A stretch of DNA of 64,000 nucleotides from Blastocystis sp. Blastoise (Eukaryota > Protista > Bigyra: Opalinata), in contig JBBPEB010000006.1 in NCBI GenBank assembly GCA_039096225.1, positions 1,302,001 to 1,366,000 of the forward strand, given 5' to 3'. The position numbers and the translations under genes are program-made. The notes below the pieces were generated by a model, which was not told the DNA's origin, did not search any database, and saw nothing but the letters and a program-made list of their open reading frames with translations. Shown piece after piece: positions 13,307 to 61,099 of the stretch (position 1 is the stretch's first letter; the number at the start of each line of letters is the position of its first letter).

Positions 13307-13367
<61 letters not shown>

Positions 13368-35870: not shown

Positions 35871-36098
35871 TTTAAATTAATAAAACTAGGGTCACGCCGC
35901 AGGTCCAGTGCCTAACGGCCCCGGACCGCGGCTGCATGAAAATATGTGTGTTTAGTTTTTTAGTATCCTTCATTATTTTTATATATTGTTTATTGTTTAT
36001 TGTTTATTATTTATTGTTAATTATTTATTTATTATTAATTATTTATTATTTATTTATTATTATTTATTATTATTTATTATTAATCATTTATTATTTAT

Positions 36099-36168
36099 TT
36101 CTTATACTCTACATGGAGAGTTATAATCAATAAATGATTGTAATCAGGTTCAATTCCTGATATAAGAA
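36099..36168 (+). ncRNA. tRNA-like cloverleaf element, copy 3 (inside the virus)
   Basis: TTCTTATA/TATAAGAA acceptor; CTCT-ACATGG-AGAG; TTATAATCA/TGATTGTAA arm; TCAGG-TTCAATT-CCTGA; oligo-T downstream. Confidence 0.7.
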
Positions 36169-36589
36169 TCTATTATACTTTTTCAATAATATATAAAAAT
36201 AAAGAAGAAATTATTTTAAATAAAGAACAACGTTTTGAGTTATATTCATTATAAAAAATTATTTTCTAAATCAATTTTGACATTATTAATAATTATACAA
36301 CTGTTTAAAGCTTTTTTTGAGTTTTAAAGTCAATAATTTTAGAAATGAGTAACAATGTGAAGAACTTTGAAGTATTTTTAATTCATAAAATTCATTTAAA
36401 TAAGCATAATAAAATAATTTAAACTCATTTTAATAATTTTTAAAAGAATTTTGAAGTTTTAATCATAACAAAGTCAACATTCATTTTCACTTTGACAACT
36501 AAAACATTATTTAAAAAGTTAATATTTTTATATTCGTCTCAAATAATGATTTTAATTATAAATAACTCAAAATAGTAACTTTTAAAGAG

Positions 36590-38050: not shown

Positions 38051-38668
38051 AAGATCGAAGAAAATATCGATCACTCAAAAATCGTCCTCAGGAGCTGAAA
38101 ATCGCTACACCTAGGTTTTTGGACCTCCTGAATCAGAATATGATGTCAAAATAAGAATCTAAATTTGACCGTTAAGGCCTCACGTGTTCAATATGAAAAA
38201 GTATTAAAAAATAGATAAATATAAAGAATAAACACGGATAACGTATATTGTGGGATTGAGAAAAAATCAAGTTTACCCCATGTTTATTTTCCAATTGTCT
38301 GGTCAACAATTTTTATCGGGGTCACCCCAAAGAGCCAATCAAAAACGACTCAAAAATCATGTTTTCTGTTCTTTTATTAATATCTTTTTAATTATAAATA
38401 ACATCGCTTAACCAAATATACGGTGCACAACTACACGTTATATCCTATTGAACTGTGTTTCAACCAAAAGTTAACTTCCCGTAAGTTTAGAGGAGTTGTG
38501 GGTACAAACTTGAGTATATAGTAGCCAATCAAATGAATTTTCCAAAAACTGACCAATGGGAATTTTTTTGCCTATTCTCATATATATAGTAATGATAATT
38601 ATGAATTTTAAAACAAAACAAAAAAAAGAAATTATTTATATTATATAGTTAGTATATTAATAGTATCA

Positions 38669-39466
38669 TTAATTATTATGAGTATTTTTTAAATAATCGT
38701 CAATATTCATTGATTTATCATTAGCTTCAACAAATAATGTTTTATTTTTGTAGAATATATTATTATTTCCAAAAACATCACTATTGGTGCATTCAATAGG
38801 TCCATCAGTATACCATTTGAATTTATACTTTCCATAAGTGGCGTTATAATATGTTTTTTCGTCGGTATCTTGTTGTAAATTCATATCGAATTCAAATTTC
38901 TTTGGAGTATTATCATCTTCTTTATCTGGTTTCTTTTCAGTTTCAGGTTTAGTTTCAGGTTCTTTAGCTGGTTTCTTTTCGTGTTCAGGTTTCTTTTCAG
39001 GTTCTGGTTTGGGTTGTTCTTCAGTGAAATTAGAATTCATGGATTCTGGTTGTGGTTTCACTGTATAGTCTTCATTAGGATTTCTTACAGTATGAATAAG
39101 TTTTTCATATTGATAGTTATTAGGATTACTAGCATCATACCATATCTTACTTGTAGTAGGAATACCATAATTCGTTTGCCATTGAGATAACATGGATGTA
39201 TATCTATTGGTATCACCATTAGCTTTAGCTGAATTCATAGTAGCTATAAACATATCTTCAGGTGATTGACCATGATTTCTTAATGCTTGAACTGCCATTG
39301 AGCTATACATAGATCCTTGGGCATTAGGATCATGTGCTAATGGTTGTACAGGTTGTTCATCTTGACAAATATATGAATTGGGTAACCATGGATCCCAAGA
39401 TTGTTTTTTCTGATTTCTTGATAAAATATCATAGAGAGTTACACTATCTCCTAAATTACTTTGCAT
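38669..39466 (-). CDS. Hypothetical viral protein with Pro/Glu/Lys-rich linker
   Basis: 265-aa ATG ORF in the structural cluster, followed by the 3' motif at 38612. Confidence 0.75.
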   Translation of the reverse strand: MQSNLGDSVTLYDILSRNQKKQSWDPWLPNSYICQDEQPVQPLAHDPNAQGSMYSSMAVQALRNHGQSPEDMFIATMNSAKANGDTNRYTSMLSQWQTNYGIPTTSKIWYDASNPNNYQYEKLIHTVRNPNEDYTVKPQPESMNSNFTEEQPKPEPEKKPEHEKKPAKEPETKPETEKKPDKEDDNTPKKFEFDMNLQQDTDEKTYYNATYGKYKFKWYTDGPIECTNSDVFGNNNIFYKNKTLFVEANDKSMNIDDYLKNTHNN

Positions 39467-40633: not shown

Positions 40634-41671
40634 TTAATGAAAAGAAGGATAACCAGAATAATGTTTTTTATTTAAATAAGGATTAAAAATGCGTCGTTGA
40701 CTATCTTGTATGATTTGATCTTGTATGATTTGTAAGATGGATTCTTTAGGTTTATCTTTTTCATCTCGTTCAATACCTTTCAATGAGACTTCTTCTTCAA
40801 CAGGTAAAAACTTCTTCATTTTCTTTTCATATGTAGATATATGTTCATTAGGACGTTTAATACCACTACCTGATACTTCACCTTGTTCTTCTCGTTTCTC
40901 TTTTTCACTATCTTCTTCTGTCCATTTCCTTTTCTTTACCATCTTATATACATTCTGTTTACTACCACAATCAGGATTAGTCCATATTGTTAAATCATCA
41001 CTACCTTGTTTTAACATAAAGAATTGATGTGGATCATTCATTAATTCTTCATCTGTAAGAATTTCATTTAGATTTGATGGCATAATCTTTAATTTATCTG
41101 GTAAGAATCCAGGATCACGTTTTAAGATTTGACTATTAATAAAGAAATGAGATACTTGACTTAATATAGATTGATTCGTGACATCTGTATGACTTTGAAG
41201 ACATATAATAGCATTCTGTTTATAATGACGACCTTTAGATAATATAGATACAATCAATTGTTTGGTTTGTCTAGATAATGGATAGATATCATCCAATACA
41301 ATAAAATTATGTTCTGGTAATTTATATGTATTGACTAATTCATCAACAGTTTTAATCTTTTTAAATTTATCATCTACAGAATCATACCATTTATAATCAA
41401 TTCCAGCATGTTCACAAATATCTTGAAAGGATGTATAACATTCATTCTTATTGGATGCATCAGGACAAATTACTGTGACTTGTTTATATTTATTTTTAAG
41501 ATCCATAGAACATAAGAGGTTCACAGTTAAGAAAGATTTTCCTGAGAATGTTCTTGCAATAATCAATATGAATTTTGATTCATATGTTTTATGATGGGAT
41601 TTTCCATATTTAAATTCTAAGACTCCACATCCTTTATGTGTTTCTTTTAATGGATTTATTTTATTCACCAT
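40634..41671 (-). CDS. A32/FtsK-HerA-family DNA packaging ATPase
   Basis: Walker A ARTFSGKS, Walker B FIVLDD, arginine-finger KGRH, conserved Q in ICLQS. Confidence 0.92.
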   Translation of the reverse strand: MVNKINPLKETHKGCGVLEFKYGKSHHKTYESKFILIIARTFSGKSFLTVNLLCSMDLKNKYKQVTVICPDASNKNECYTSFQDICEHAGIDYKWYDSVDDKFKKIKTVDELVNTYKLPEHNFIVLDDIYPLSRQTKQLIVSILSKGRHYKQNAIICLQSHTDVTNQSILSQVSHFFINSQILKRDPGFLPDKLKIMPSNLNEILTDEELMNDPHQFFMLKQGSDDLTIWTNPDCGSKQNVYKMVKKRKWTEEDSEKEKREEQGEVSGSGIKRPNEHISTYEKKMKKFLPVEEEVSLKGIERDEKDKPKESILQIIQDQIIQDSQRRIFNPYLNKKHYSGYPSFH

Positions 41672-42503: not shown

Positions 42504-43727
42504 TTAATTGGTTGCACCATCTCTAACAAATTTAACAAATATAAAATGAGCATATAAAGTATAAGTACCACTAGTAATATTTGCACCATTATATTCAGTT
42601 AATAAGGAGATATTAACTTCACAACCACTACGAGTATTGACATCAACAACACTTGAAATAGGGAATATATAAATAGGTTGTTCATACCACTTTTCACCAT
42701 TTAAAGGAGATTGAGGATGACTATTACATCTCCAAGTATTATAAAGCATAGCATTAGGAATAATTTGTGATGGATTCGTTGTTTTATATGTAGTAGGGAA
42801 ATCCGTCTTTGGTAAGATATTTTGACCACCAATTTGGAATTGACACATCTTCAATAATTCAGTCTTAATAGGAATCATACTCTTCTCTTGAGTTGTAAAA
42901 TATAGCATACAGTAATCAGGTACGAAAACAACACTTCTATTGGATAAGAATTGTTGTGGAGTTGGTTTACCTGCTGTTGTGAATGTTTGTGAATAAACAG
43001 GTGTAGTAAATGCAGATATTTGACAATTATTAGGAATACATTTAATTAAAGCACGTGGATCATTACCAAAATTAATATCATAAATTTGTTGAAGATGAAT
43101 ATAAACACGATCAAAAGTTAATGCAGTGATTTTAGTGGTTCCAGTAAATAGATTCTTTAAATAATTTGTAACGAATTGCATCTTCAAAGATTTTACTTTA
43201 ATAGCACAATCAAATGTACCAAGACCAGTAATAAGAGATAAAGGAATAATAACTTGAGCTTTAGTAGAACTTTGCATTCCAGAAATACTACTTAATGTTG
43301 TATTATATAAGCATTCTGTCATACTATACATAGATTTATCAATTTCATCTTTACTTAATTCTTTAATAGTAACAAATTTTCTTGCTTTACTGGATTCAAT
43401 AGATGATTCAGAATAATTAATAAGAATATCTTGACCCGTAGGAGATACAAACGTAAGATCTGTAGTAATTTTATCAATAATACTATAGATATTAGAATGT
43501 TGTACAACAGAACTAGTTGTAGCTGCATTTGTTGTAATATTGAAATTCAGTTCTAAGAATGAATTGCTGAAATCAATAAAAGGACTATCCACTGAATTAT
43601 ATAAGAATTCAAATGGATAAGGTTGATTTAATAAATCCTGACTTGTAGAAACTAGAATAGGAATTTGTACAGGTTTAATAGTTTGATTTGCCTTTGAAGG
43701 TAAGAATTGTCTTGGGAATCCTTCCAT
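42504..43727 (-). CDS. Double-jelly-roll major capsid protein, paralog 1
   Basis: 407 aa, beta-rich; FIDFSNSFLELNF, NIYSIID, IPLSLITG, PDYCMLYF, FQIGGQ..P pattern of Polinton-type MCPs. Confidence 0.78.
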   Translation of the reverse strand: MEGFPRQFLPSKANQTIKPVQIPILVSTSQDLLNQPYPFEFLYNSVDSPFIDFSNSFLELNFNITTNAATTSSVVQHSNIYSIIDKITTDLTFVSPTGQDILINYSESSIESSKARKFVTIKELSKDEIDKSMYSMTECLYNTTLSSISGMQSSTKAQVIIPLSLITGLGTFDCAIKVKSLKMQFVTNYLKNLFTGTTKITALTFDRVYIHLQQIYDINFGNDPRALIKCIPNNCQISAFTTPVYSQTFTTAGKPTPQQFLSNRSVVFVPDYCMLYFTTQEKSMIPIKTELLKMCQFQIGGQNILPKTDFPTTYKTTNPSQIIPNAMLYNTWRCNSHPQSPLNGEKWYEQPIYIFPISSVVDVNTRSGCEVNISLLTEYNGANITSGTYTLYAHFIFVKFVRDGATN

Positions 43728-43902
43728 TTTAATAATTATTGTTTATGTATTTTTTTAACAAAATAAAAATAAAATAATAATAATATTTTATAATTATTAA
43801 TTAATTTTAATTTTTATAACAAAACAAATGATTGTATTATAGAATAGAATAGAATTAATTAAACAAGTTAACGTTAAGAATAGTAAGTAAGAAATATTAA
43901 AT

Positions 43903-45375
43903 TTAAATATCACGTACACTACGTACAGCAATCATATGTAATGTATAAGGATGCTTCTCATTTAGTTCAGTATTAATATGTTTATAAATACCAGCATGAG
44001 ATGCTACACTATAAGAAGCACCAGTATCAGGTGTCCATATTTTAGTAGTTTCATTATATGTACATGTATATCCATCAGGAACAGTGGATGAATCAGCATG
44101 TCCATATTCAATATCATGGACATCTAGATTACAATCAAAATTCATTTCTATACCACTATCTGATTGGATATTCATTAATGCTTTAGTTGGAATAATATAA
44201 ATAGGATGTTTAATCCATTCATCATATTTAAGAATAGTTTCAGGATTTGAATTATCAGCCCATAAACAATATAAATTTTTATTAGGACAAGATAAACTAG
44301 CAGTTTCTTCATTATTGAAGACATGACCTTTAGTAGTAAGATTATGATAATACATTTGAGTAGGGAATTCAGTTTGAGGGAACATTTGAACATCACCAAT
44401 CAAACAACTTTGATATTTAGGCCATACAGATGGACTAGCTATATTACTAATAGTTGTTGAACTATAACCATTTGTAAACCAGTATAATATATATTCAGGT
44501 ATAAATGGTAAAGCTCTATTGATATTGAAATGATCACTAGTTATTCTTGTATTTTGATAATCGACTTGAATACATGTAGGTATAGTTTTATATAATTCAT
44601 TCGTTTGGAATTGAATATCTTTATAAGTCATTAAATTCATAGTAGCTGATTCCAATTCAAATGTCTTAAACCATTTTTCATCAGTTAGATGTAACCATTG
44701 TGTTGATAATTTAGCACCACCATTCTTGAAATAAATACTCATATTATTATCAATTAAAGATTCAATTGTACTCGTTCTAAATAGCATATTGAAATGTTTA
44801 GTTAATATTAAAGAATCTCCATCAACACCTAAACCACTAATGAGATATAAAGGAATAGCAATATGAATAGATTGTTTTGGATGTGCACGTATATAACGAA
44901 TAGAATTCAATTCATAAGTATCTGCAGATAAATCTTCACCATACATAGATTTTTCTAAATCATTCTTACTGATATCTTTTAATAAAATCATCTTACGACC
45001 ACGTGAAGCATGTGTACAATTTTCTTCATATTTCAAAGCACGATCAGATCCATCAGGTAATGTATAAACCATTTCAACATCAGTGGAATCAATAATAGAA
45101 TAAATATTAGCTTTCTGAACTAATTGATCCAAGAAATATTGACATAATTGATCATAAGTGAAACTAACAGAAGTACCTGTTTCATCTAAATAAACAGAAA
45201 CTGGTCCTTTTTTATCTGTAACAGTTGCTTTGACAGTAAGATCCAAATAGGATTGATTGAAATTGATATAAGTATTATCCACATTAGTCCAATGATATTG
45301 AAAGATATAAGGACTTGATAGAATATCAGTATCACTTTGAATAGGAATATTATCTTTAATTCTTAAGATTCTCAT
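43903..45375 (-). CDS. Double-jelly-roll major capsid protein, paralog 2
   Basis: 490 aa, colinear with paralog 1 (YINFNQSYLDL, NIYSIID, KSMY, IPLYLISGLG, PEYILYWF, PQTEFPT, PIYIIP) plus insertions. Confidence 0.75.
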   Translation of the reverse strand: MRILRIKDNIPIQSDTDILSSPYIFQYHWTNVDNTYINFNQSYLDLTVKATVTDKKGPVSVYLDETGTSVSFTYDQLCQYFLDQLVQKANIYSIIDSTDVEMVYTLPDGSDRALKYEENCTHASRGRKMILLKDISKNDLEKSMYGEDLSADTYELNSIRYIRAHPKQSIHIAIPLYLISGLGVDGDSLILTKHFNMLFRTSTIESLIDNNMSIYFKNGGAKLSTQWLHLTDEKWFKTFELESATMNLMTYKDIQFQTNELYKTIPTCIQVDYQNTRITSDHFNINRALPFIPEYILYWFTNGYSSTTISNIASPSVWPKYQSCLIGDVQMFPQTEFPTQMYYHNLTTKGHVFNNEETASLSCPNKNLYCLWADNSNPETILKYDEWIKHPIYIIPTKALMNIQSDSGIEMNFDCNLDVHDIEYGHADSSTVPDGYTCTYNETTKIWTPDTGASYSVASHAGIYKHINTELNEKHPYTLHMIAVRSVRDI

Positions 45376-48467: not shown

Positions 48468-50264
48468 ATGCAATCAACAGGTTATTCAGATAAAGATTGT
48501 GAAGAATTCTTTACAAATTGTATAGATCAATTATTACATTGGAAGAAAATACAATTATCAACAAGTATAAATTGGAAGAAATGGATCAAGACAATATGTA
48601 AGAAATTTCGTAATGAAGAACGAATTCAAATAGATGATATGGAAGAACCGTTCTTTTGTGTAGAAGTGTTAACAGATCCATTTCAATTTCAAAATGTTAT
48701 GCAACATACACAAACAGAAGCTCCTGGACAACAAGGTGGATTATCCAATACTACTGTAGCTAATTATATGCAAATGATTACTTATATAATGAAGAATATA
48801 TCTATTTGTACAGATGATGAAGATATCATTAATTATAAAGCATTTACTCCACAAAATATAAAGAAATGGGAACATTTATGGGGTTCTTTACAAATTGATG
48901 CTACTTATTCAAGACATTATGAAATCACTCAGAAAATTATTAATTGTGAAGCTGATTGGGGAGAAATCATTAATATCACCAAAAAGAATTATTTAGAGAA
49001 TCCTAATGATTTATATTATGTGAATAGTTATTTATTAGTTTTAACTTATGATACATTATGTGCTCGTAATGATTATAATGATTGTGTAATCTATACTCGT
49101 GGTCAACAAATTCCTTTATCCTTAAGAAGAACAACTAATTATATTGATTTAAATACTTTGACTATTCATGTGAATGATACAAAGAATCGATTTGAAATTG
49201 GTAAGAATGAATATCCTACTTATCAATATTTATCAGAAGAATATTTGAATGTCTTAGCTAGATCCTTACGTTTATTTCCAAGACATTATTTATTTGTTAC
49301 TGAGAATGGTGGTAAAGTACGTGATTTGAAATTTGGTGATGAATATATAAAACCCCATTTAGGCTGGATTTATAAAACACAACAGAATAATTCTTTAATT
49401 AATGGTTGTGATATTATAAGACATTTATTTGCTCAATATTATTATAGATTATCAAGAGAAGCACAATTCCAACATAATGATTCAGAACACGAATCTAAAG
49501 GTGTAGAACTCTTTGAAAATTCGATTATGAAGATGTTACATAGTCAATCAACACATATGGAAAATTATATATCTCCTTATTTATCTTCTCATTCAACTAA
49601 ATTGCAAGATTTAGATAATAAAACAAGAACATTTCATATTGATATGAATAATATTACTTATACAAGAGAAATTAATCAATTGAATAAATTATTATTTTTA
49701 TGTAAACGATTTAATGATCGTATAGAACAATATGAAGAAGACTATGAAGATGTATTTGGTAAAGAGAATTTCAATATGAAATCAGAATCCATATTAAGTA
49801 GTCTAGAACAATATTCATCAGATAATGATACTATAATGATTACATTAAGATATTATAAAGATCTATTAAAGCATCATTATCCAGATAAAACAGATTTAGA
49901 AAATGAATTACCTGTAGGATGTTCATTAGAATCTGAAGAAGTTCCAGAGAATTCTAGAGATCGTTATAATCGTTTTATACGTAATAAACAATTATTACCT
50001 GATCATTTACATAATAATACAACGGATTCAGAATTAACGAATACTCAAGCATCTCTTATGCAACAGAATACTCAAGATGAAAACTCTACACCTATAGTTA
50101 TGAATAATTCAGATACTTATGCATTACGTAGTCTTTCTACTATGCCTCCTTTAGAGCCTATTCATCGTGGTCATGGTTTATGTAGAAAACATAAAGGTAA
50201 TGCATTCTTTAAAGTCAAAGTCCCTAAAAAACATTTTCATGGAATTCAATTTAAATTTTATTAA
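48468..50264 (+). CDS. Tyrosine recombinase 1 (long form, C-terminal extension)
   Basis: Catalytic pattern R (CARNDY), K (DTKN), IIRH, H...Y (MLHSQSTHMENY). Confidence 0.78.
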   Translation: MQSTGYSDKDCEEFFTNCIDQLLHWKKIQLSTSINWKKWIKTICKKFRNEERIQIDDMEEPFFCVEVLTDPFQFQNVMQHTQTEAPGQQGGLSNTTVANYMQMITYIMKNISICTDDEDIINYKAFTPQNIKKWEHLWGSLQIDATYSRHYEITQKIINCEADWGEIINITKKNYLENPNDLYYVNSYLLVLTYDTLCARNDYNDCVIYTRGQQIPLSLRRTTNYIDLNTLTIHVNDTKNRFEIGKNEYPTYQYLSEEYLNVLARSLRLFPRHYLFVTENGGKVRDLKFGDEYIKPHLGWIYKTQQNNSLINGCDIIRHLFAQYYYRLSREAQFQHNDSEHESKGVELFENSIMKMLHSQSTHMENYISPYLSSHSTKLQDLDNKTRTFHIDMNNITYTREINQLNKLLFLCKRFNDRIEQYEEDYEDVFGKENFNMKSESILSSLEQYSSDNDTIMITLRYYKDLLKHHYPDKTDLENELPVGCSLESEEVPENSRDRYNRFIRNKQLLPDHLHNNTTDSELTNTQASLMQQNTQDENSTPIVMNNSDTYALRSLSTMPPLEPIHRGHGLCRKHKGNAFFKVKVPKKHFHGIQFKFY

Positions 50265-50308: not shown

Positions 50309-53300
50309 TTAATTTGGTATAGCATATAAAGTATTATCTATTAAAATTCGTTTTGTTGATGACGTATTATGATATTGATCTTCACTATAAACAATTTCTT
50401 CTTTTTTAGATAAACAATTGGATAAACAGAATAAATCTGTATCTACACATTCATTATAAGTATTATCAATCATTAAACCACAAATACCAATAGCATTCCC
50501 TCCCTTATAAAAATTTGAAGTATGTTTTCTATGAATATTCACAATATCTATAGAATTAAATGTATCTTTACTACTTAAACAACCAAATAAAGCATTTGTA
50601 AATTTATCTAAATCTTTCTTAATCGTAAATTGATTATTATTATTCACTTTCTTATAACTATTAAAAATATCTTCAATAGTAACTACATTCAAATAATAAG
50701 GATCTATAGTAATATGGTTATCAACAAAAGATTTCAAATCATATCCTTCTGTACTACGATCAAAGAATCGTTTCTTACATTCACTTATATGATATTCATT
50801 ATCTAATTCATGCATATCTAATTGCATACTAGAATAGAAATAATTACTTACTAGATAACTAAAGATAATTGAACGATTCTGATAGAATTTATCGGATAGA
50901 GTATAATCCATTTCATAATGATTTGGTTTCAATCTCTTTTCTACTGTCTGTTTACGTTTCGGTAAATTATGATCTACATAATCTTCATATAAATTAGCAT
51001 TACCAGGAGGGAAATAACGACAACATGAAGGTAAGAAACACACTCTTCTTTCAATAGGACCAGCATTCACAGCTGTAGGTTGGATATTACTTGTCATAAA
51101 TAAAGTACCCGTGAAATGAACTTTTGTAAATATATTACTGAATAATTTACGAGCACTAGCACCTTCTTTCTTTTCTGCTATTTCTTTAAAGACTTTAGAA
51201 GAGAATGGATTGAATGTTTTCTTTCTACCAGTAACATCTTCTTCTATTAATTCATTCATATAATACATAGTCTTATTAGACATATCTACAATCTTAGGAG
51301 CTATAGATGTTTCTTCTAAATTATCTGGATTTACTATAATACATTGATTACTACCTACAATACGAGAAATTAAATCAGTTGTTATTGTTTTACCATTACT
51401 ACCTGTACTACCATATAATATATAAGAAACTGTTTTCTGAGTATTGACATAGAAAGCAGTGGTTAGGATACGTAACATAATACTTTCATATTTCTTATCG
51501 AATTCACAATATCTTGCAATATGTTGTTCAAATAATTGGATAATATCTTTCTGTTCATTATTAATATTCCAACTTACATTAAATTCAGTATCAATTAATA
51601 AATCTTCAAACACCATATCTTCTTTATGATATGGTTGGATATAATATTGTCTAGGATCTTCTTCTGTTGATTCTTTTGGATATAAATAACCAAGTTGTGT
51701 ATAGATAACACGTTCTTTATGAACCATATACGTATCTAAATATTCTTTATAAGATTTACCATAAGTCTTCAAATAACGATTCAACCATTCTTTATAATGA
51801 TATTCATTAGTAACAGAAGCAGACATTATTTTATCAACTATTTTTTGATGTTGTTCATTCTCTTTGGAATATAATCTTGATAGTTTGAATTTCTCTACAA
51901 TCGATTTCATAAATGTAGTTATTTTGGTTTCAAAGAAATTAATATCATAATTATTCTTACAACGTCTTAAGATATTATATTCATCAAATGTATATAAGAT
52001 AAAATTATCTTTATCTAATATAATAGATACAATTTCATTAAATTCTAATAATTGAAATAACATAACTAATGTTTGTGAATCTACAAGATTAAAGGATTGA
52101 ATACATTCTAAAATAGACATAAATATGAAATCATTATCATCATCTTTATTAAATAATTTATTATCCATTAATATCTTCAAAATATAATTATTCGATAAAT
52201 GAGTAGGATCAACTTGTATATGATTCCATGTAGATTCAATTACATCATCACTTCGATCATGACCATAACGTAATGAATAATTTTTAAATAATTCTAATCC
52301 TCTTGTTGTATTACAAATCTGTTTTGCTGCACAACATAATTTATACCAAGTATTATGGGATTCAAAATAATTCATATCTTCAATAGAACCAATCAATAAT
52401 AAATATCGTTCTAATAAAGCTTCTTTAGATGCTGTAGTATCCAATATAGTATCTGTAGAAATCAACATAGGAATATCTTTAATATCTTGTATAGAACATA
52501 ATATAGTACGTGAACAATTATTTAATCTTGCATAATAACGTTTATAACGTGAATATTGTTTTAATTTAGAAAAGATAATAGGATTAATAATATCACTTAT
52601 AAGATCATCTTCATTCTTATAATTCAATAATGTTTTGAAATAATAATGTTCATCGATTTTGCCTTCTATTTTCTTCCATGATTTATTGGTATATTCTTCA
52701 TATAATTTATAAGTAGATGGGGAATTATCTTTACTACAACCAAGAAACATACAACCATTATTCTTTCTGGGTTTACCAATAACATTATAATCAATGAATT
52801 CTTTTATATCTAAATTATTCATTTTAAATAAATCAACCAATTTGGTATTCAGAATCATACTATTATATAAGAAAAATAAATAATCACCATTTACAAACCA
52901 ATTTGTATATATATGAATTCCCCATGAATAATGTATTTCATTATGAACTGTCTTCTTATTCACTTCTTTCTTTGTATACACAAGCGAAATAAATTCTTGA
53001 TTATAATAATGAATACAATGATTACACATTTCTTCTATAAATTCATGAATAAAAGAATCTGTTAGAAAAGAAAAATCATTTGATATTTGGTGATAATCTA
53101 AATCAAACCATAATCTTCTATAATTAGTTGATGTATTACAAGGAGTACAATCAATATAATGTAATAATTCTTTTTGATTTTGGTAATTAGTAAATAGACT
53201 TTTATAAAATGGTAATGGATTTGGTATAATAATTTCACTATGATTATCTTTTGAGTTATCATGATTAAAGGAACCAAAAGTATAAACAAAATGAATTTGT

Positions 53301-53311
53301 GAATTTTCCAT
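50309..53311 (-). CDS. AEP primase-PriCT2-SF3 helicase (D5-like) fusion
   Basis: AEP DxD (WFDLDY) and GIHIY; PriCT-2-like TWYKLCCAAK...STW; Walker A GSTGSNGKT, Walker B YMNE, sensor MTSN. Confidence 0.9.
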   Translation of the reverse strand: MENSQIHFVYTFGSFNHDNSKDNHSEIIIPNPLPFYKSLFTNYQNQKELLHYIDCTPCNTSTNYRRLWFDLDYHQISNDFSFLTDSFIHEFIEEMCNHCIHYYNQEFISLVYTKKEVNKKTVHNEIHYSWGIHIYTNWFVNGDYLFFLYNSMILNTKLVDLFKMNNLDIKEFIDYNVIGKPRKNNGCMFLGCSKDNSPSTYKLYEEYTNKSWKKIEGKIDEHYYFKTLLNYKNEDDLISDIINPIIFSKLKQYSRYKRYYARLNNCSRTILCSIQDIKDIPMLISTDTILDTTASKEALLERYLLLIGSIEDMNYFESHNTWYKLCCAAKQICNTTRGLELFKNYSLRYGHDRSDDVIESTWNHIQVDPTHLSNNYILKILMDNKLFNKDDDNDFIFMSILECIQSFNLVDSQTLVMLFQLLEFNEIVSIILDKDNFILYTFDEYNILRRCKNNYDINFFETKITTFMKSIVEKFKLSRLYSKENEQHQKIVDKIMSASVTNEYHYKEWLNRYLKTYGKSYKEYLDTYMVHKERVIYTQLGYLYPKESTEEDPRQYYIQPYHKEDMVFEDLLIDTEFNVSWNINNEQKDIIQLFEQHIARYCEFDKKYESIMLRILTTAFYVNTQKTVSYILYGSTGSNGKTITTDLISRIVGSNQCIIVNPDNLEETSIAPKIVDMSNKTMYYMNELIEEDVTGRKKTFNPFSSKVFKEIAEKKEGASARKLFSNIFTKVHFTGTLFMTSNIQPTAVNAGPIERRVCFLPSCCRYFPPGNANLYEDYVDHNLPKRKQTVEKRLKPNHYEMDYTLSDKFYQNRSIIFSYLVSNYFYSSMQLDMHELDNEYHISECKKRFFDRSTEGYDLKSFVDNHITIDPYYLNVVTIEDIFNSYKKVNNNNQFTIKKDLDKFTNALFGCLSSKDTFNSIDIVNIHRKHTSNFYKGGNAIGICGLMIDNTYNECVDTDLFCLSNCLSKKEEIVYSEDQYHNTSSTKRILIDNTLYAIPN

Positions 53312-53379: not shown

Positions 53380-53527
53380 TTCTAGAAGTCAGTTTTAGAA
53401 GCTTCTAGAACCTTCTAGAACATTCAGGAACATTCTAGAACATTCTATAATAGTAAATATTACTTTATATTTTTAAATGTTCTAGAACCTTCGAGAACCT
53501 TCGAGAACCTTCTAGAACCTTCTAGAA
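53380..53527. promoter_or_regulatory. Two heat-shock-element-like arrays (10 nGAAn units each) upstream of the primase-helicase
   Basis: 53398-53445 and 53480-53527: perfectly alternating GAAnnTTCnnGAA. Confidence 0.75.
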
Positions 53528-53637
53528 CATCCTTTTTATACTTTAGTGTTTTAAATGTATATACAATAAACAAAACAATTTTCAATGATTTTTTACAAGT
53601 TTATAAGTAAAACTAGAAAAATAAACAAGAAAATAAA

Positions 53638-54261
53638 TTAAATTTCAATTGGTTCTTGACTATTAATATATGTACATGAATGAGGCCATCCATTTTTATC
53701 ATATAAAATACCATCCCAGAAATACATTTGTTTTGAAGGATCTCTTTTAATCTTGTTAATACTCTTAGCATGAACAACTTCATAAGAATAAACTTTACCT
53801 TTTTCATCATAAAGAAATCCATCTTCCATATGGAATTTCATAATATCAAAATCATCATCTTTAGAATTCGAATGTTCTTTAGAATCTTCAGAACATAAAA
53901 TAGTAGTTCTATCACTTTCTAAAAGATCTTCAGTATTGATAATATCTTGAATATCTTGTTCTTCATTAAGTTGTTGAGTATAAATATCAGCAGCGAATTC
54001 TTCATAATCTTCAAGACCTTTAATAACCGCGTTTATACGTTTTAAAGCTGATCTATAGTTTTCGACTTCGAAAGAAGCAAGACGTTCTTTAGATTTTGCA
54101 ATACCCAATAGATTCTTTTCTCTATTCAATTGAGACTGATGTAAATCAATATCACGAAGAACATTCTTATGAACTTCAACAGCCTTCTTAGAATTCTTTA
54201 GAAGTTCCATACGAACAGTTTGAAGACATTTACGGGAATCAGCAGAAAGATTAAATTGCAT
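53638..54261 (-). CDS. Hypothetical viral coiled-coil protein
   Basis: ORF from ATG 54261 (MQFNLSADS); HSE at 54373-54390 upstream; 3' motif at 53569. Confidence 0.75.
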   Translation of the reverse strand: MQFNLSADSRKCLQTVRMELLKNSKKAVEVHKNVLRDIDLHQSQLNREKNLLGIAKSKERLASFEVENYRSALKRINAVIKGLEDYEEFAADIYTQQLNEEQDIQDIINTEDLLESDRTTILCSEDSKEHSNSKDDDFDIMKFHMEDGFLYDEKGKVYSYEVVHAKSINKIKRDPSKQMYFWDGILYDKNGWPHSCTYINSQEPIEI

Positions 54262-54659
54262 TATAATCGCGAATATCGTTACAGAGAGAAAATTTGTATT
54301 TATCAAAATGAAATAAATAATACATTTAAATGGAATATTAAATATTCTAGGAGACAGTCTAGAATCTCTATGGAATGTTCTAGAAGGTTCATTTGATTGG
54401 CTAATTTTGTCGACTTAGCATTTTTTATTTGTGTTTCAATGACGAGTATAGTTGGCATCTGTAATCTGATTGGATACAAAAATTAGTAAAACACAATTAG
54501 ACGATGACGACGATGTGTCATACGAAATAAGTTATTTTATTGGCTTATTTTCCAGCTGGAAGCAATAGGCTTTTGTTAGCAACTGAAATGAAGAACTGTA
54601 CACTAAAAATAGTATATTTAATATATTGTATAAAAATACTTTTGAAGGTTTAAATAATC

Positions 54660-55187
54660 ATGGAAATTCCTGATAGTCTTTCTGCCAGTTTATCCCCTTT
54701 CGGTCAAGCCATGATATCCCCCTTGTTGAATCCATTTGAAAATAGTGTTTCTGCAAATCCTATGGCTTTACCCAATGATAATGATTTCTGTTTTAATTCG
54801 CGTGACGAAATCATATTTGAAGATCCACCTCAAGAAATTCATCCAATCAATGATGTTTACGTATCTAAAAATCCAGATAGATATCATTCGGTTAACAATC
54901 AACCAATACAATTTCAAGATCAAGTAAATACAAATCCTGATAAGCAAGCATTATTATTTACAAATGAGGAGTTAACAAATATATCCAGTCAATTCGAATC
55001 TTTATTTCAAACTATGGAAACGGCTGATAATATATTAAATAGTATTTATTGTACTGTTGATCATTTAAAAACAAAGATTGAAAGTCAGAAACAAGATTTG
55101 AAACAGATTCATGATGATTCTAAAGAAATTGTTTCATTATTATCCGAATATTCTATTCCTTCTATGTCTGAAATATTTGATCATTAA
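54660..55187 (+). CDS. Hypothetical viral protein (Pro-rich N-terminus, coiled-coil C-terminus)
   Basis: 175-aa ATG ORF; CCAAT boxes (ATTGG) upstream; 3' motif at 55212. Confidence 0.75.
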   Translation: MEIPDSLSASLSPFGQAMISPLLNPFENSVSANPMALPNDNDFCFNSRDEIIFEDPPQEIHPINDVYVSKNPDRYHSVNNQPIQFQDQVNTNPDKQALLFTNEELTNISSQFESLFQTMETADNILNSIYCTVDHLKTKIESQKQDLKQIHDDSKEIVSLLSEYSIPSMSEIFDH

Positions 55188-55386
55188 TTATTTTTATTTA
55201 ATTAATTATTTTGTTTTGTTTATTTTTTTTTTAAATTAATTACACAAAGTTTAAATGGAGAATAGAATAGTTTCAAATAGAATTCTTGAATGGTCTAATG
55301 GATCTATTAAAGAAATATGTAACTACAGTATCATGGTTCGATTCCGTTAAAATGTTTCCATTAGATTATTCAAGTGTTCTTTTTTT

Positions 55387-55434
55387 TTCTAGAACCTTCT
55401 CGAACATTCTAGAACCTTCTCGAACCTTCTGGAA
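55387..55434. promoter_or_regulatory. Heat-shock-element-like array (10 units) upstream of the SSB gene
   Basis: TTCtaGAAccTTCtcGAAcaTTCtaGAAccTTCtcGAAccTTCtgGAA. Confidence 0.75.
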
Positions 55435-55510
55435 AATTGATTCATTTGAAAAGAATATCGTAAAATATTAGTATTAAAATACTTATATTTTTACTAAATA
55501 CTTAACTAAA

Positions 55511-56104
55511 ATGTCTTCAACTGAATTTAAGAAACCTACTATTCTTGATACTTCTAACTTTAATTTACAATGGGATGACACCAAAGAAAATGCTGTTCTT
55601 TTAAATAATAATCATCGTGTATGTATTTCTACTGATGCTACACCATGTTTATTTGGTTATATTGTTACACGTGATAAATGGACTTTAATAACGATTGAAG
55701 ATGATAATCAAGTATTCTTAACTGCTTATAAAGAACTTTATCGTAAATTATGTGAATTATGTCCTGATGGTGATATTGTTAATTTTGTACGTATGGATAA
55801 TGGTAAATATAAGATTACAATTAAAGTACCTATTAATGCATCGAAGAATGTTACTATTGATATTACTGATAAAAGAGATAAGAAGATTAATATCGGTAAA
55901 GATCCTAAGTTAACTTACGAAGAAATACGTGAAAAGTATATTCCACCAAATACGTTATGTAAAGTATTATTTACAATACATGGTATTCATCGTTATAATA
56001 ACAAGTATTATATTGGTTTATATGCACGTTCTATTAAAGTATTCGATAAATCTACGAAGAATACTAACAGCAATGATACTATTATTGATTTAACTAAATT
56101 ATAA
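55511..56104 (+). CDS. OB-fold single-stranded DNA-binding protein (NCLDV/T7 gp2.5-like)
   Basis: 197 aa; C-terminal IPPNTLCKVLFTIHGIHRYNNKYYIGLYARSIKV resembles the viral SSB strand pattern. Confidence 0.65.
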   Translation: MSSTEFKKPTILDTSNFNLQWDDTKENAVLLNNNHRVCISTDATPCLFGYIVTRDKWTLITIEDDNQVFLTAYKELYRKLCELCPDGDIVNFVRMDNGKYKITIKVPINASKNVTIDITDKRDKKINIGKDPKLTYEEIREKYIPPNTLCKVLFTIHGIHRYNNKYYIGLYARSIKVFDKSTKNTNSNDTIIDLTKL

Positions 56105-56179
56105 ATTTTTAATGTTAAATTTATTTTTTATTAATATATTTGTTTTGTTTATAAATAATTTTATAATTGAAATAAAAAA

Positions 56180-57808
56180 ATGCAAAGTTGTATCTTAGGA
56201 ATGCCAAGTCCTGGTACTTTTGGTATGAATTTAATTTCAACTGGAAAAGAATATAGGCGATATAATACACAACCATTACATAAAATGGATCAATATAATC
56301 CAATATTTCATGAAATAGGTCCAAATTCATCTATGCCTGTGTCTACTTTAGAAAGTAAAGAAATACATGATGGTAAAGAAGATGATTATGTAGATCGTTC
56401 TAAAACATTTGGTAAAGATGCTGTTCCACAAGGAAATGGTGCTTTAATTCGTGCTAGAGCAGCAGGTAAAGGTGTAATGAAAGCAGCTGGTCCAGAAGAA
56501 GATAAAATAGATGGTGAAGATCGTCAATATAAAGTATTAAATCCATGTAAACCAAGACGTAAATCTGGTAGAGGAATTATTCCAAATAAATCAGAAATCA
56601 ATAAATTAGAGAATAATCAAGGTTCTGGTATTGGTGATGCAATTAAAAATAAAGTAAAAGATATGTATCAACGAAATGTATTAGATATAAGAGATGCTAT
56701 TGTAGATAAAAAAGCTAATAGAAAAGCTCGTGATGCATTAGCTATTTTAACTCAATATGTTGGTGATGGTCATCATGATCTTGATGATGAATTCAAAAGA
56801 TTCTATGAACATAAAATAAAACGTGGTGGAAAGATTCCTATATCTGTTGCTTCAGCAATTATGAATGCAATTAAAAATAAGAAAATGATTAAGAATCCAA
56901 AATTAAGAAGAATGTTAAGACCCTCTATTATACCAAAATATATAGATTTAGATTCAGCTCAAAGTGGTGATGGTATATTAAGAGTAAAAAGAGGTGGTGG
57001 ATTCTGGAGCGGATTAATGGATTATGCACCAGCTCTATTAGGTGTAGTTGATAAAGGTATGGATTCTTTTGCTAAAGGTAGAAAAGCTTATTATGATACA
57101 CATTTGGCACAACAATCAAGTGAATTAAATGATATGGAATTTGAAATGGAAAAATTAAAACGTCAACAAGCATTAAATGAAATGAAAAAGCAAATAGGTT
57201 CAGGAAATACAATAAATAAAATGTTTGAAGGATATTATGATGTAGCTGATGAAATGCAAGATGCTCTTGATGAAGATGATAGACTACATCCACAACCCGT
57301 TGTTCAACCTCCACCACCTCCACAACAACAAGTTGATCGACCTCCTCAATCTCAACCTCCTCAACCTTATAAACCCATGTCTCGTGATGAACAAAGTTAT
57401 TATTATAAGATTTATGGTTTCCCTCAAAATGATAAAGAAAAAGTCGATAGAAAATGGAAAGAAGATGAAAGGGATAAACGAATAGCTGCAAGAAGAGCTA
57501 AACGTAGAGGTTATGGTGGTCGAGTTAAATTAAGTAAAGCAGAATTCTTAGAACGAATGAGAAGAGGAAAAGAAGCTAAAAAGAAAAGAGGTGGTGATTT
57601 GAATCCATTAGTATCATTTTATACAGATTTTATAATACCTGCAGGAGTGGCACGAAAAAAACGTAAAATCCAAGAGGCTGATTTAAAACAATTACAAATT
57701 ATAAAACAGAAAAGAGATAATAATGAAACATTAAATGCAGGTGACGAATTGTTTTGGAAAAAAAAGAAATATATGTTATCAAAAAACTCAGGGGAGGGGA
57801 TCTGGTAA
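56180..57808 (+). CDS. Putative basic virion core polyprotein with ~12 GG/GxG cleavage-like sites
   Basis: 542 aa, Lys/Arg-rich; overlaps the protease ORF; paralogous N-terminus with 34380-35870. Confidence 0.7.
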   Translation: MQSCILGMPSPGTFGMNLISTGKEYRRYNTQPLHKMDQYNPIFHEIGPNSSMPVSTLESKEIHDGKEDDYVDRSKTFGKDAVPQGNGALIRARAAGKGVMKAAGPEEDKIDGEDRQYKVLNPCKPRRKSGRGIIPNKSEINKLENNQGSGIGDAIKNKVKDMYQRNVLDIRDAIVDKKANRKARDALAILTQYVGDGHHDLDDEFKRFYEHKIKRGGKIPISVASAIMNAIKNKKMIKNPKLRRMLRPSIIPKYIDLDSAQSGDGILRVKRGGGFWSGLMDYAPALLGVVDKGMDSFAKGRKAYYDTHLAQQSSELNDMEFEMEKLKRQQALNEMKKQIGSGNTINKMFEGYYDVADEMQDALDEDDRLHPQPVVQPPPPPQQQVDRPPQSQPPQPYKPMSRDEQSYYYKIYGFPQNDKEKVDRKWKEDERDKRIAARRAKRRGYGGRVKLSKAEFLERMRRGKEAKKKRGGDLNPLVSFYTDFIIPAGVARKKRKIQEADLKQLQIIKQKRDNNETLNAGDELFWKKKKYMLSKNSGEGIW

Positions 57809-58374
57809 AGAGTAAAGATGAAAAACTTATTCAAAATTCAATGAATTGTGATAATCCTATTATATCTGATAAAACTCGTCATGTTACTCCTAGATCCCCT
57901 GATAATTTCAAACAAACTCTATCTCAATATTGTAATATACCAAATTCTTTAATATCTCAATTATATAATTATGCTTATTTAAATAAACCTACCTCTTCTG
58001 TTGCTTGTGATCGTGCTGAAAATGTTATGAAACAATTAAATAAAACGAATTCTCAATCTTATAATTATTATAATAGTTATGATGATTTTGAACAAAATAT
58101 AGATCAAGATCAAACTAAATTTAATATGATCTTTCATGAAAGTCCTAGTGATCCTTATAATGGTCATTTTGAAGCTGTTATTTATAATGGTAATAAAAAT
58201 ATAGAACACTATTCATCATTAGGAAATAAACCTACTTTTTCAAAATCATTTATTCAAAATCATAATATTCAATATAATCCTATTCAACACCAAAAAACTA
58301 CAAGTAATGCAAATGGTTGCTTTTATTATTCTTTACTTTATTTACTTTCTAATGGAAATCTTATGCCTTGTTAA
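57754..58374 (+). CDS. Adenain-like (clan CE) maturation cysteine protease; in the -1 frame of the upstream ORF, first ATG at 57841
   Basis: GHFEAV (His), HYSSLG (FDSFG-equivalent), QHQ (oxyanion Gln), NGCFYY (Cys). Confidence 0.75.
   Translation: MEKKEIYVIKKLRGGDLVKSKDEKLIQNSMNCDNPIISDKTRHVTPRSPDNFKQTLSQYCNIPNSLISQLYNYAYLNKPTSSVACDRAENVMKQLNKTNSQSYNYYNSYDDFEQNIDQDQTKFNMIFHESPSDPYNGHFEAVIYNGNKNIEHYSSLGNKPTFSKSFIQNHNIQYNPIQHQKTTSNANGCFYYSLLYLLSNGNLMPC
57781..57900 (+). promoter_or_regulatory. Candidate -1 programmed ribosomal frameshift signal
   Basis: In-frame A_AAA_AAC at 57781-57787; 7-nt spacer; stem AGGGGATCTGG (57795-57805) / CTAGATCCCCT (57890-57900) extended by GAGTAA/TTACTC. Confidence 0.7.
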
Positions 58375-58460
58375 AACATTCTAGAATATTCTAGAATCTT
58401 TAATTTATTATATTAATATTTTGTATAATTAATTTGTTTTGTTTATTATTTAATACTATA

Positions 58461-58616
58461 ATGACAAAGAAACGATTTGGCAATTACTACTTAGATCGTA
58501 GTGCAGAAACTTTAGAGAATGTAAATGAAATACTGTCAGTTATTGAAATTGTTCTTATTATTATATATATTTTACTTTACTTTTATATGTCCAAGAAACG
58601 TTCTAGAACATTCTAG
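58461..58616 (+). CDS. Small putative membrane protein (51 aa)
   Basis: ATG ORF with a single hydrophobic helix and basic tail; HSE upstream (58379-58396); 3' motif at 58688. Confidence 0.45.
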   Translation: MTKKRFGNYYLDRSAETLENVNEILSVIEIVLIIIYILLYFYMSKKRSRTF

Positions 58617-58718
58617 AACATTCATTTTGAACTGGCTCTATTTGTAGAATCTTTAATTTATTATATTAGTGTTTTGTATAATTAATTTGTTTTGTTTAAT
58701 CATTGGTTAATTTAAATA

Positions 58719-59093
58719 ATGAACAAGAAATATCTTAGTTATTCTTATTTTTGTCGTGTGATGAAGAATCTAAAAGAAGAAGGAATTAAATCTAAAAAGA
58801 ATGAAATAGCAAATCTATTAGAACAATTTTTAAATAACAATAACAGCAAAAATCTTAGTGATTTGCAATTGAGTTACTGTAGAAACATGTTACTTTATAT
58901 AGATGATCCTGTGATTCATCAACGTCTTGAAATGCTATTGGATAAACAATATATGAAGAATGAGAATCAATATCAAGATGATAAGAATCTTATTCAACCC
59001 AATAATATGTTTATGCCAACTATGAAAAGTAATCAACAACAAAATCAATATCAAAATAATAATAATAATCTATCTTTCTTACCTTTCAATTAA
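58719..59093 (+). CDS. Hypothetical viral protein with Asn/Gln-rich tail
   Basis: 124-aa ATG ORF; HSE at 58601-58623; TGTTTAGTT variant downstream. Confidence 0.65.
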   Translation: MNKKYLSYSYFCRVMKNLKEEGIKSKKNEIANLLEQFLNNNNSKNLSDLQLSYCRNMLLYIDDPVIHQRLEMLLDKQYMKNENQYQDDKNLIQPNNMFMPTMKSNQQQNQYQNNNNNLSFLPFN

Positions 59094-59168
59094 TTTTTAT
59101 ATCCTTTTATTACTAGTTGTTTAGTTATATTCAAAATTTAAAAACAAAACAAACATAAAAACATAAAA

Positions 59169-60104
59169 TTATTCAATTAATTTTTTAAATAAATTATTAT
59201 TTTCTAAAGATACATAAGAATTAATATGTGTATAATCATTATGACATAAAGCAGAAGCAGAATTTTCTATATCTTGGAATGTATTGGTTGTAGTTGTAGC
59301 ATATAATTTTCTTAATGCATTAATGGTTAATTTTGGATGGATTTGTTTTAAATGTTTATTCACAAACCAATCAAATGCTTTAGTAGTAAATCCAGTTCTA
59401 ACAGAAGATTCAAATATAAATTTACGATTTGGATTTCTTTTTAAGAGTAATTCTAGATCTTCAATCAATTCTTTTGGTGCATCTAATTGAATTGTAGAGT
59501 ATTTACCAGCAGTTTTATAATCATTTAATAGAATAGAACCAGTATGTTTCTCTTTATCATAAACAATATAATTCTTATGAATAGCTGGATCAATAGTATC
59601 TTCTGGAGTTAGAATGAATAATTGAGCATAATCAGCACGAGCAGGAGGAAGATAGGAGTAAAAATCTAATATTAATCGTAATGGGTTATAATTTTCTAAT
59701 TTATCGTGATATTCATGTAAATATGGAGTCGTAATACCATCTTTAATAAGATCTTGAATCAAAGTACGTTTCTTATTATCCAGATATTTTTCATACATAG
59801 AATTGATAATCACATAAAATTCACACCATTTATTTAAAATACCTTCTTTATTTAATGAAGAAACATTACGTATAATAAATAAAATCAATTCACATAACGA
59901 TTTCATTGGACTAATTTTGATTTTACGTTCATTTACCATATAATCCATGAATGAATAAGGATTCTTTAAGAATTCTGAGAACTTTTTAAATGGTAATGGG
60001 AAAATATATAAATTGAAATAATTGGTTAAACGTTTTTTCCAAATATCAGAATAATTTGAATTCTGTATAACCAAAAGATACTTGTCATAATTCGTATTTT
60101 TCAT
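59169..60104 (-). CDS. Tyrosine recombinase 2 (short form)
   Basis: R (PARADY), K (YKTAGKY), ALRK, H...Y (LCHNDYTHINSY); probable ATG at 60104. Confidence 0.85.
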   Translation of the reverse strand: MKNTNYDKYLLVIQNSNYSDIWKKRLTNYFNLYIFPLPFKKFSEFLKNPYSFMDYMVNERKIKISPMKSLCELILFIIRNVSSLNKEGILNKWCEFYVIINSMYEKYLDNKKRTLIQDLIKDGITTPYLHEYHDKLENYNPLRLILDFYSYLPPARADYAQLFILTPEDTIDPAIHKNYIVYDKEKHTGSILLNDYKTAGKYSTIQLDAPKELIEDLELLLKRNPNRKFIFESSVRTGFTTKAFDWFVNKHLKQIHPKLTINALRKLYATTTTNTFQDIENSASALCHNDYTHINSYVSLENNNLFKKLIE

Positions 60105-60192
60105 TGTTTTTCTCAAGTAGAATCTTTAAAACTTCTATTTTGAAAAGAATAATACATAAGAAAATCAAAATAAAATATCTAAGATTCTCATG

Positions 60193-60240
60193 TTCTCGAA
60201 TGTTCTAGAAGTTTCGAGAATGTTCTAGAATATTCTAGAA
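60193..60240. promoter_or_regulatory. Heat-shock-element-like array (10 units) upstream of tyrosine recombinase 2
   Basis: TTCtcGAAtgTTCtaGAAgtTTCgaGAAtgTTCtaGAAtaTTCtaGAA. Confidence 0.75.
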
Positions 60241-61099
60241 AATTGATATACATGCCGCCACCTAAAACCACTGGAACATAATTAGTTTCCCCAGTTTCCC
60301 CATAATAATTGTGTTTTTGTGTTCCAAAATCCCTCATTTTTACATTTTTAAGCAATTTGATTGGACAATTCACGATGACGCATCCTATTTCCATAACGGT
60401 CACCCTTGTTTCCAAAAGTCTCTCGTTATAATCGTGGTGGTGGGTACATCTTTTTACAAGACCACACCACCACCAGCTTTTCTTTCACCCACTATAAATA
60501 CATACCTTGATCACTTTACTCTTTTTATATAAATTTTTTTATGATTATCATTACTTTTTATATTATTTATTGATCACTATACATACATTTTTATTTTTAT
60601 ATATTCCCGTGATTATTTTTATTATTTCTTTTTTAGATAGAACCATCCATTTCATCTTTTCTCTATATAAAGGGAGGGTCGGGGTGTGTGTTTATTTAGC
60701 ACATTCTGTGCTTCTTTTCGTATTTCTTTCTGTATTCCCGTGATTATTTTACTCACTTTACCAACGATGGAGTCATTTTCCATGAATATTTCCTGTAAAG
60801 GGGAGGGTTGGACTGTGTATTTTATTTCTTTTATGATTACTATGAGTTTCTCCTTGATCACTTTACGTTTCACGTTGGAATCGGAACACAAATAAATTAA
60901 AAATAAATAAACATGGGAAAAAATAAATACACACACACACTACCCTACACTCCCATGGTTATTTTACTTCAGAAATGTTATTAATTCTTCCGTCGAGAAC
61001 AAAAAGGGGGGATGACTTCCCCGCTTATGGCTGCGCGCGTCGCGCAGACTCTATGCGGGGTTTGCATACCCCCTTCTGCAGTTCGAAGAACGGAAGAAT
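60203..61099 (-). repeat. Right terminal inverted repeat of the virus
   Basis: Reverse complement of 33195-34090. Confidence 0.97.

Follow-up and report, generated by a model that had tools for sequence, protein, structure and literature searches.

An intact, integrated Polinton-like virus (PLV) in the genome of Blastocystis sp. Blastoise carries perfect arrays of the heat shock element (HSE) type ahead of a subset of its genes. The element occupies positions 33195–61099 of the window, which is the whole 64,000-nucleotide stretch analysed here (assembly GCA_039096225.1, contig JBBPEB010000006.1, positions 1,302,001 to 1,366,000 of the forward strand) and to which all coordinates below refer unless a contig handle is given. 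The arrays are real, and they most likely mark an early-gene regulon under a heat shock factor (HSF) of the host, for which we infer a heat or stress trigger. That a host HSF both binds the arrays and acts as a stress switch of early provirus genes is given a probability of about 0.55; that the arrays are binding sites of a host HSF-family protein, whatever its role, appears quite probable.

Eight perfect arrays of alternating inverted nGAAn pentamers are found in the element, and their coordinates and unit counts (8, 10, 10, 4, 10, 4, 5 and 10) are exactly those given in an earlier note on this DNA. The first, of eight units (34053–34090), forms the inner end of the left terminal inverted repeat (TIR), 47 bp upstream of a 55-aa open reading frame (ORF). 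Two ten-unit arrays (53398–53445 and 53480–53527) precede the ATG of the primase-helicase gene by 86 and 168 bp, the latter lying 3′ of the 3′-end motif of the neighbouring 207-aa gene. A four-unit array (54373–54390) is located in a divergent promoter with CCAAT boxes near 54394 and 54467, and a ten-unit array (55387–55434) is found 76 bp ahead of a 197-aa ORF. Another four-unit array (58379–58396) falls between the stop codon and the 3′-end motif of a 177-aa gene, 64 bp ahead of a 51-aa ORF, while a five-unit array (58601–58623) overlaps the end of that ORF and lies 95 bp ahead of a 124-aa ORF. The last, of ten units (60193–60240), comprises the inner end of the right TIR plus 10 bp and lies 88 bp upstream of the gene for a 311-aa tyrosine recombinase (YR)-like protein. 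The promoter regions at 58379–58460 and 58640–58718 share a duplicated block of about 60 bp after their arrays.

A scan of the whole window recovered no perfect array of at least three units besides these eight. Only seven are independent, because 34053–34090 and most of 60193–60240 are the paired inner ends of the two TIRs. Their distance to the genes had been given as about 50–220 bp; the measured distances to the ATG are 47–269 bp, a proximal-promoter position, with the nearest array at 47–111 bp in seven of the eight genes and at 269 bp in the case of a 175-aa ORF. In 300 trinucleotide-preserving simulations, chance produced 0.89 arrays of at least three units per element, 0.02 of at least four and 0.003 of at least five, and the analytic expectation for a ten-unit array is 5e-12. 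The 27.9-kb element contains TTCTAGAA 20 times, and the 36.1 kb of host DNA does not contain it at all.

The earlier claim that the cores are invariant and the spacers vary stands in part. Core invariance is partly circular, because the arrays were defined by perfect cores, and ten of the 16 array ends run on into a unit with one mismatch. The spacers are themselves biased, with TA in 16 of 24 TTC-nn-GAA spacers and CC or CA in 18 of 22 GAA-nn-TTC spacers. What holds is that each long array contains two to four different decamers with all variation in the spacers, a pattern that is not predicted by simple slippage. Neutral, functionless 10-bp tandem repeats generated by slippage would account for the likeness among the 10-mer units, and exact tandem repeats indeed make up many of the prokaryotic arrays. 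This origin is nonetheless extremely improbable here, given the distinct decamers with spacer-only changes, the position of all seven separate arrays upstream of ATGs in an element that is about 75% coding, and their absence from the microsatellite-rich host DNA.

The canonical HSE is defined as nGAAnnTTCnnGAAn (PMC6927752, PMC9157408), with at least three alternating inverted nGAAn pentamers, and the eight arrays have 4–10. No clear TATA box was seen near them in the AT-rich DNA. The match to the HSF consensus claimed earlier is borne out, down to the preference for flanking bases. Among the 53 pentamers of the seven independent arrays, 41 are AGAAn (a share of 0.77) and 18 are AGAAC, against 42% and 5% of the 1323 other nGAAn pentamers in the element; the pentamers are not independent of one another, so that p-values of this bias are overstated. 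AGAAC is the reported optimal HSF pentamer (GTTCT; PMC4326385), and TTCTAGAAnnTTCTAGAA is the consensus of yeast Hsf1 in chromatin immunoprecipitation (PMC6340206). In Phytophthora infestans, a distant fellow stramenopile, the HSF PITG_04701 binds TTCTAGAA in electrophoretic mobility shift assays, with three units preferred (PMC11267843). The earlier note would have given up the idea for a host genome without HSF; at the genus level, two to three proteins with the HSF domain (IPR000232) are listed for each of eight Blastocystis genomes (PMC12129017, Table S5).

A host HSF-family protein might also bind but act constitutively or as an activator tied to the life cycle, for instance during encystation, in which case the arrays would be strong early promoters and not a heat or stress switch. 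Most HSF genes of P. infestans are upregulated at spore stages, PITG_04701 being expressed mainly in zoospores (PMC11267843), yeast Hsf1 drives about 20 genes basally (PMC6340206), and the two to three HSF-domain proteins of Blastocystis have no established role. This alternative is nevertheless somewhat unlikely. In reporters, multimers of the consensus HSE combine a very low background with very strong induction by heat (PMC4326385), HSE-bearing transposons that have been tested are mostly heat-induced (PMC6927752, PMC12801592), and steady expression of a helicase and a recombinase from many copies would presumably be costly.

Genes were counted as marked when a perfect three-unit element lies no more than 300 bp upstream, and these make up eight of the 20 genes considered. 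They are the primase-helicase gene, with its two arrays, the 311-aa recombinase-like gene and six ORFs. Of the latter, the 55-aa ORF (34138–34305, + strand) is acidic and is followed by a variant of the 3′-end motif; neither it nor the 207-aa ORF (53638–54261, − strand), with its array 111 bp upstream, has an assigned function. The 175-aa ORF (54660–55187, + strand) has an acidic N-terminus and a predicted C-terminal coiled coil, the 51-aa ORF (58461–58616, + strand) a hydrophobic C-terminal stretch, and the 124-aa ORF (58719–59093, + strand) a Q/N-rich tail. The 197-aa ORF is located at 55511–56104 (+ strand). The 12 unmarked genes, which lack even a one-mismatch element, include those for the predicted packaging ATPase, both capsid paralogues and a 598-aa protein. 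A Fisher test of the partition (0/9 versus 8/11, p = 0.0014) is not relied on, since the gene classes were assigned partly by eye.

The arrays described in the earlier note ahead of the primase-helicase, the recombinase-like gene (its YR2) and several small genes are thus present, and so is their absence ahead of the capsid and ATPase genes, whereas several of its gene labels fared less well. Its 'SSB', the 197-aa product, finds no support in Pfam, PHROG or NCBIfam; its single-sequence model has a predicted local distance difference test (pLDDT) score of 37, its best VIA-align Z score is 3.5, no Atlas match was usable, and it has one homologue. The 'penton' and 'core' labels are unverified, the 223-aa putative penton having no family match. 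The 175-aa coiled-coil protein was considered as an HSBP1-like feedback damper, an idea that found no support: it gave no HSBP1 match at E ≤ 0.5, only generic coiled-coil matches, and no outside homologue. All eight Blastocystis genomes lack HSBP1 (IPR009643), and HSF damping by the 175-aa protein is conceivable though unsupported.

The genes of the element also share a 3′-end signal. In 18 of the 20 genes, convergent ones included, the sense strand carries the motif TGTTT[T/A]GTT no more than 90 nt past the stop codon (for example at 56141–56149, + strand); its occurrences are intergenic and span 34323–59152. In Blastocystis, TGTTTGTT lies 4 nt downstream of poly(A) sites (PMC4159000), and the resemblance of the two motifs suggests transcription of the element in the host nucleus. 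The element's motif is a variant one base longer than the Blastocystis polyadenylation element, and the host flanks contain just two occurrences of TGTTTTGT. A role of TTGTTTTGTT as a late promoter was rejected, as it follows stop codons, those of convergent genes too.

The split between marked and unmarked genes bears on a further alternative, in which the arrays would be read by a co-infecting giant virus with its own transcription machinery, as in mavirus-type provirophages. EMALE04 virophages are reactivated via CroV's late promoter motif and not by host stress (PMC10945749, bioRxiv 2025.10.09.676808). Such motifs would be expected on the capsid genes too, yet none is found there; moreover, the motif is the canonical host HSE, and the CCAAT boxes and host-like 3′ motif point to host RNA polymerase II (Pol II). 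No helper virus for this host was found in the literature searched, the intergenic motif common to the element's genes is the 3′-end one, and reading of the arrays by a giant virus is considered very improbable.

With a host HSF as the stress switch, the following course may be proposed. Because the genes end in a host-like 3′ motif, the element would be transcribed by host Pol II in the nucleus. Under heat or proteotoxic stress, several HSF trimers would load cooperatively onto the 8–10-unit arrays and drive an early regulon comprising the primase-helicase, one predicted tyrosine recombinase and six other genes. Mobilisation and copying of the element by the recombinase and helicase would come next, and the capsid-side late genes would be turned on afterwards by another signal. 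The trigger would be heat or proteotoxic stress and not a life-cycle cue. This is in essence the proposal of the earlier note, and the consensus match, the HSFs of the genus and the eight-versus-12 partition speak for it, while a function can be assigned to just two of the eight marked genes and one recombinase-like gene is unmarked.

Several observations weigh against a host HSF as the stress switch. The unmarked recombinase-like gene, a second one of its kind, encodes the 598-aa protein (48468–50264), and the functions assignable to the two marked genes are in replication and recombination; because the other six have no established function, the term 'early' is partly an assumption. Among ten P. 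infestans HSFs tested, ungapped sites were the commoner kind and many of the factors are life-stage regulated (PMC11267843), and two of six HSE-bearing long terminal repeat (LTR) families of a flatworm were not heat-induced (PMC12801592). The 3′ motif of human subtypes is reported not to be enriched in tortoise-clade genes (PMC12129017), which weakens a 'host-like' reading of the 9-nt variant. Outside the element, an eight-unit pattern is found at 40 loci across prokaryotic genomes (596 Gb in all), where there is no HSF. Among viral six-unit loci, the array lies inside an ORF in 46 of 68, and phage replication initiators account for ten of the 13 such ORFs that were tested. No related locus was obtained from viral contigs (with the helicase, distant-helicase and capsid alignments as queries) or from metagenome contigs. 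The ORFs adjoining long arrays in public contigs comprise one heat-shock protein and one Ty3 gag among 91, a set made up of 89 of 121 candidates plus two from contig L002, many of the contigs being short or intron-bearing.

These look-alikes raise the question of whether the element encodes the binding protein itself, with the arrays serving as an autoregulatory operator or as replication iterons and resembling HSEs through convergence. The 6–10-unit TTCnnGAA arrays in phage initiator genes and at the 40 prokaryotic loci would favour this, as would the location of two arrays in the TIRs and the several small array-linked ORFs without an assigned function. The intra-ORF arrays of phages are probably iterons; one such array, at L008:4604-4631, and about 40 similar phage loci have six to seven units inside replication-initiator genes. 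An iteron origin would consist of one cluster in or beside the initiator gene, whereas the arrays of the element are spread across seven promoter positions, and the helicase gene itself contains none. Their flanking-base bias is that of the HSF optimum and differs from the prokaryotic arrays: the mean AGAAn share is 0.25 in both the viral (71 loci, duplicates included) and the prokaryotic (40 loci) sets, against 0.77 here, and a share of at least 0.7 is reached by two viral loci and two of the 40 prokaryotic ones. At least three separate arrays were found at none of the viral or GTDB loci examined, in flanks of 8–10 kb and 1.5 kb, respectively. No HSF-type or other DNA-binding family scored above cut-off among the ORFs of the element in Pfam, PHROG or NCBIfam, although the proteins are too divergent to exclude one. 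Binding by a viral protein is accordingly rated as decidedly unlikely, and a host HSF remains the preferred binder.

The eight-unit pattern was also found at four loci in IMG/VR and at at least 120 in metagenome contigs. With a stricter five-unit pattern based on TTCTAGAA, six of 12 viral loci are of the circular Rep-encoding single-stranded (CRESS) DNA virus type. In the CRESS contigs L052 (1484-1610 and 4545-4671), L235/L242 (L235:4978-5135) and L067 (998-1136; from the set of the six-unit viral pattern), the array lies 60–135 bp ahead of Rep and is followed in L052 and L067 by a TATA-like box. In L233 the array is found at the end of Rep, and that of L238 (315-453) precedes a capsid-like ORF as well as a TATA box. 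These contigs suggest that HSE-type promoters may be recurrent in small eukaryotic DNA viruses. A CRE-like TGACGT and the TATA box are found beside the array in L052, and the origin hairpin is well apart from it in L052 and L067. Arrays of the TTCTAGAA type also occur between genes in the giant-virus-like contigs L234/L241:6001, L239:6001 and L240:6001, that of L241 lying ahead of a C2H2 zinc-finger ORF.

HSE control itself is known from other mobile elements and viruses. A close parallel in arrangement is Helitron1_CE of Caenorhabditis elegans, whose Rep-helicase is associated with 14 HSEs, bound by HSF-1 and heat-induced (PMC6927752); both elements have dense HSE clusters upstream of their own replication enzyme. 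Helitron1_CE, however, transposes by rolling circle, has one main gene and encodes no capsid, whereas the element described here, from sequence alone, is a capsid-encoding double-stranded DNA (dsDNA) provirus with seven arrays on an eight-gene subset. In ONSEN of Arabidopsis and the Ty3 LTR elements of the flatworm Macrostomum lignano, canonical HSEs are likewise found in the mobile element's own promoter, as here partly in a terminal repeat; their activation runs through the heat-shock pathway, and mutation of the HSE abolishes the heat response of one flatworm LTR (PMC12801592). These are retroelements with one promoter and no split into marked and unmarked genes, and each flatworm LTR has one to four HSE motifs (PMC12801592). 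A looser likeness exists to the Qp promoter of Epstein–Barr virus (EBV) and the LTR of human immunodeficiency virus 1, where HSF1 acts at a promoter site of a latent virus (PMC9157408); in those animal viruses the sites are single and form one of many inputs, in contrast to perfect arrays of 4–10 units on several genes of a protist virus.

Among viruses of protists, the element resembles PLVs and endogenous virophages in its size class of 15–30 kb, its TIRs, major capsid protein (MCP), primase-helicase and putative tyrosine recombinase, and its many copies (PMC10120064, PMC10945749, bioRxiv 2025.10.09.676808). The known trigger of PLVs and provirophages is giant-virus infection with its late promoter motif, whereas the promoters described here point to a host factor. 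The MELD virus of Blastocystis hominis is similarly a midsize dsDNA virus-like element from Blastocystis datasets with divergent virion proteins, but it encodes PolB and an rve-type integrase where the present element has a primase-helicase and YR-like genes (PMC8502044). Neither 'promoter' nor 'heat' occurs in the text of that paper. No description of HSE control in PLVs was present among the literature matches listed, the top 12–20 of up to 430, whose scope largely leaves out subscription journals. What sets the element apart is that it is a capsid-encoding DNA provirus with a multi-gene HSE split, HSE control as such being known from ONSEN, Helitron1_CE, flatworm LTR elements and EBV Qp.

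Protist genomes contain thousands of integrated PLVs, and the activation route in the literature consulted is giant-virus infection. The element offers a concrete host-encoded candidate trigger. If a host HSF does act as its stress switch, this would permit helper-free induction and isolation of a PLV, and virus release in a very common genus of gut protists would be tied to temperature or stress. Old sightings of virus-like particles in Blastocystis (PMC12835684) might find an explanation here as well, although those were about 30 nm in size and perhaps a different virus. A bolder extension remains tentative, and on balance is doubtful: a helper-independent provirus with its whole early regulon hard-wired to the host heat-shock response, in true parallel to SOS-triggered prophage induction, of which temperature or proteotoxic stress could wake about 20 intact copies at once; an independent recurrence of this wiring in CRESS-DNA viruses would make hijacking of HSF a switch common to small eukaryotic DNA viruses at large.

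The provirus recognised in the earlier note is supported as Polinton-like by its capsid fold, packaging ATPase, primase-helicase and TIRs, and it fits the working definition of a PLV in PMC10120064, which includes a length of 15–30 kb with TIRs. The left TIR (33195–34090, + strand) is 896 bp and the right TIR (60203–61099, − strand) 897 bp long, with four differences between them. At its inner end, each has a promoter-like block that faces inwards and combines an array with a CCAAT box (at 33929 in the left TIR); no clear target-site duplication was recognised at the ends of the element. The MCP (43903–45375, − strand; 490 aa) is a predicted double jelly-roll with a pLDDT of 72, and its model matches MCPs of an iridovirus (E = 2e-9) and Sputnik (4e-9) as well as PBCV-1 and PRD1 in Foldseek. 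Its best BFVD match is a 'MELD virus sp.' protein (4e-16), a label that may or may not refer to the B. hominis MELD virus. The second capsid paralogue (42504–43727, − strand; 407 aa) shares 28% identity with the MCP (E = 3e-39), and the two genes are adjacent within 42504–45375.

The predicted packaging ATPase (40634–41671, − strand) matches the PHROG terminase large subunit (E = 1.2e-10), and Pfam FtsK only at E = 0.05. The primase-helicase (50309–53311, − strand; 1000 aa) matches PHROG DNA primase (E = 2e-9) and TIGR01613 (E = 9e-9), while its profile found no sequence match in the PDB. In the 311-aa protein (59169–60104, − strand), the R..R..H..Y residues of tyrosine recombinases were recognised by eye, the Pfam Phage_integrase match (E = 0.084) falling below the cut-off; the motifs of the 598-aa protein (+ strand) were likewise recognised by eye, and it has no family match. 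Neither pPolB nor an rve integrase, the pair that characterises Polintons/Mavericks sensu stricto, was found in the Pfam, PHROG and NCBIfam scans of the element's ORFs, most of which match nothing.

Proteins 98–99% identical to those of the element, and labelled Blastocystis sp. Blastoise, are found on many contigs, in clusters of 19 for the helicase, 21 for the 598-aa protein, 16 for the 175-aa protein and 15 for the capsid protein. Because these near-identical clusters number 15–21, the provirus family appears to have roughly 15–20 largely intact copies in this genome, and two to three more distant families, with helicases 41–44% identical, carry the same label. Metagenome assemblies contain relatives of the capsid protein with 44–49% identity; the contigs reach 27.5 kb, near the full length of the element, and the clusters of these relatives hold up to 343 sequences. 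On the longest related contig, from sequencing run X1, the helicase gene has 15 differences in all, and the 14 that are listed are all synonymous, for which reason the family looks functional; a second X1 contig with 13 clustered helicase differences was left out of this count. Run X1 is guessed to be RNA; its contigs extend over portions of marked as well as unmarked genes and do not allow the two to be ranked. At 54316 and 55657, X1 contigs leave the element into at least 255 unrelated bases, which suggests that the array-bearing region varies between copies or contains insertions.

A 2.8-kb non-coding stretch at 35870–38669 has CCAAT boxes near 38335 and 38525 and contains about three degenerate repeats of about 490 bp (69–73% identity). 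It has no Rfam match, and neither has the rest of 33000–61300. The 496- and 542-aa proteins (34380–35870 and 56180–57808) share a similar N-terminal region of about 65 aa (E about 2e-4) and have basic C-termini with Gly-x-Gly; by eye, they are possibly protease-processed core proteins. In the host flank, MULE/MuDR transposase fragments are found at 12384–15301, with a short TTAGGG run upstream of them at 10371–10392.

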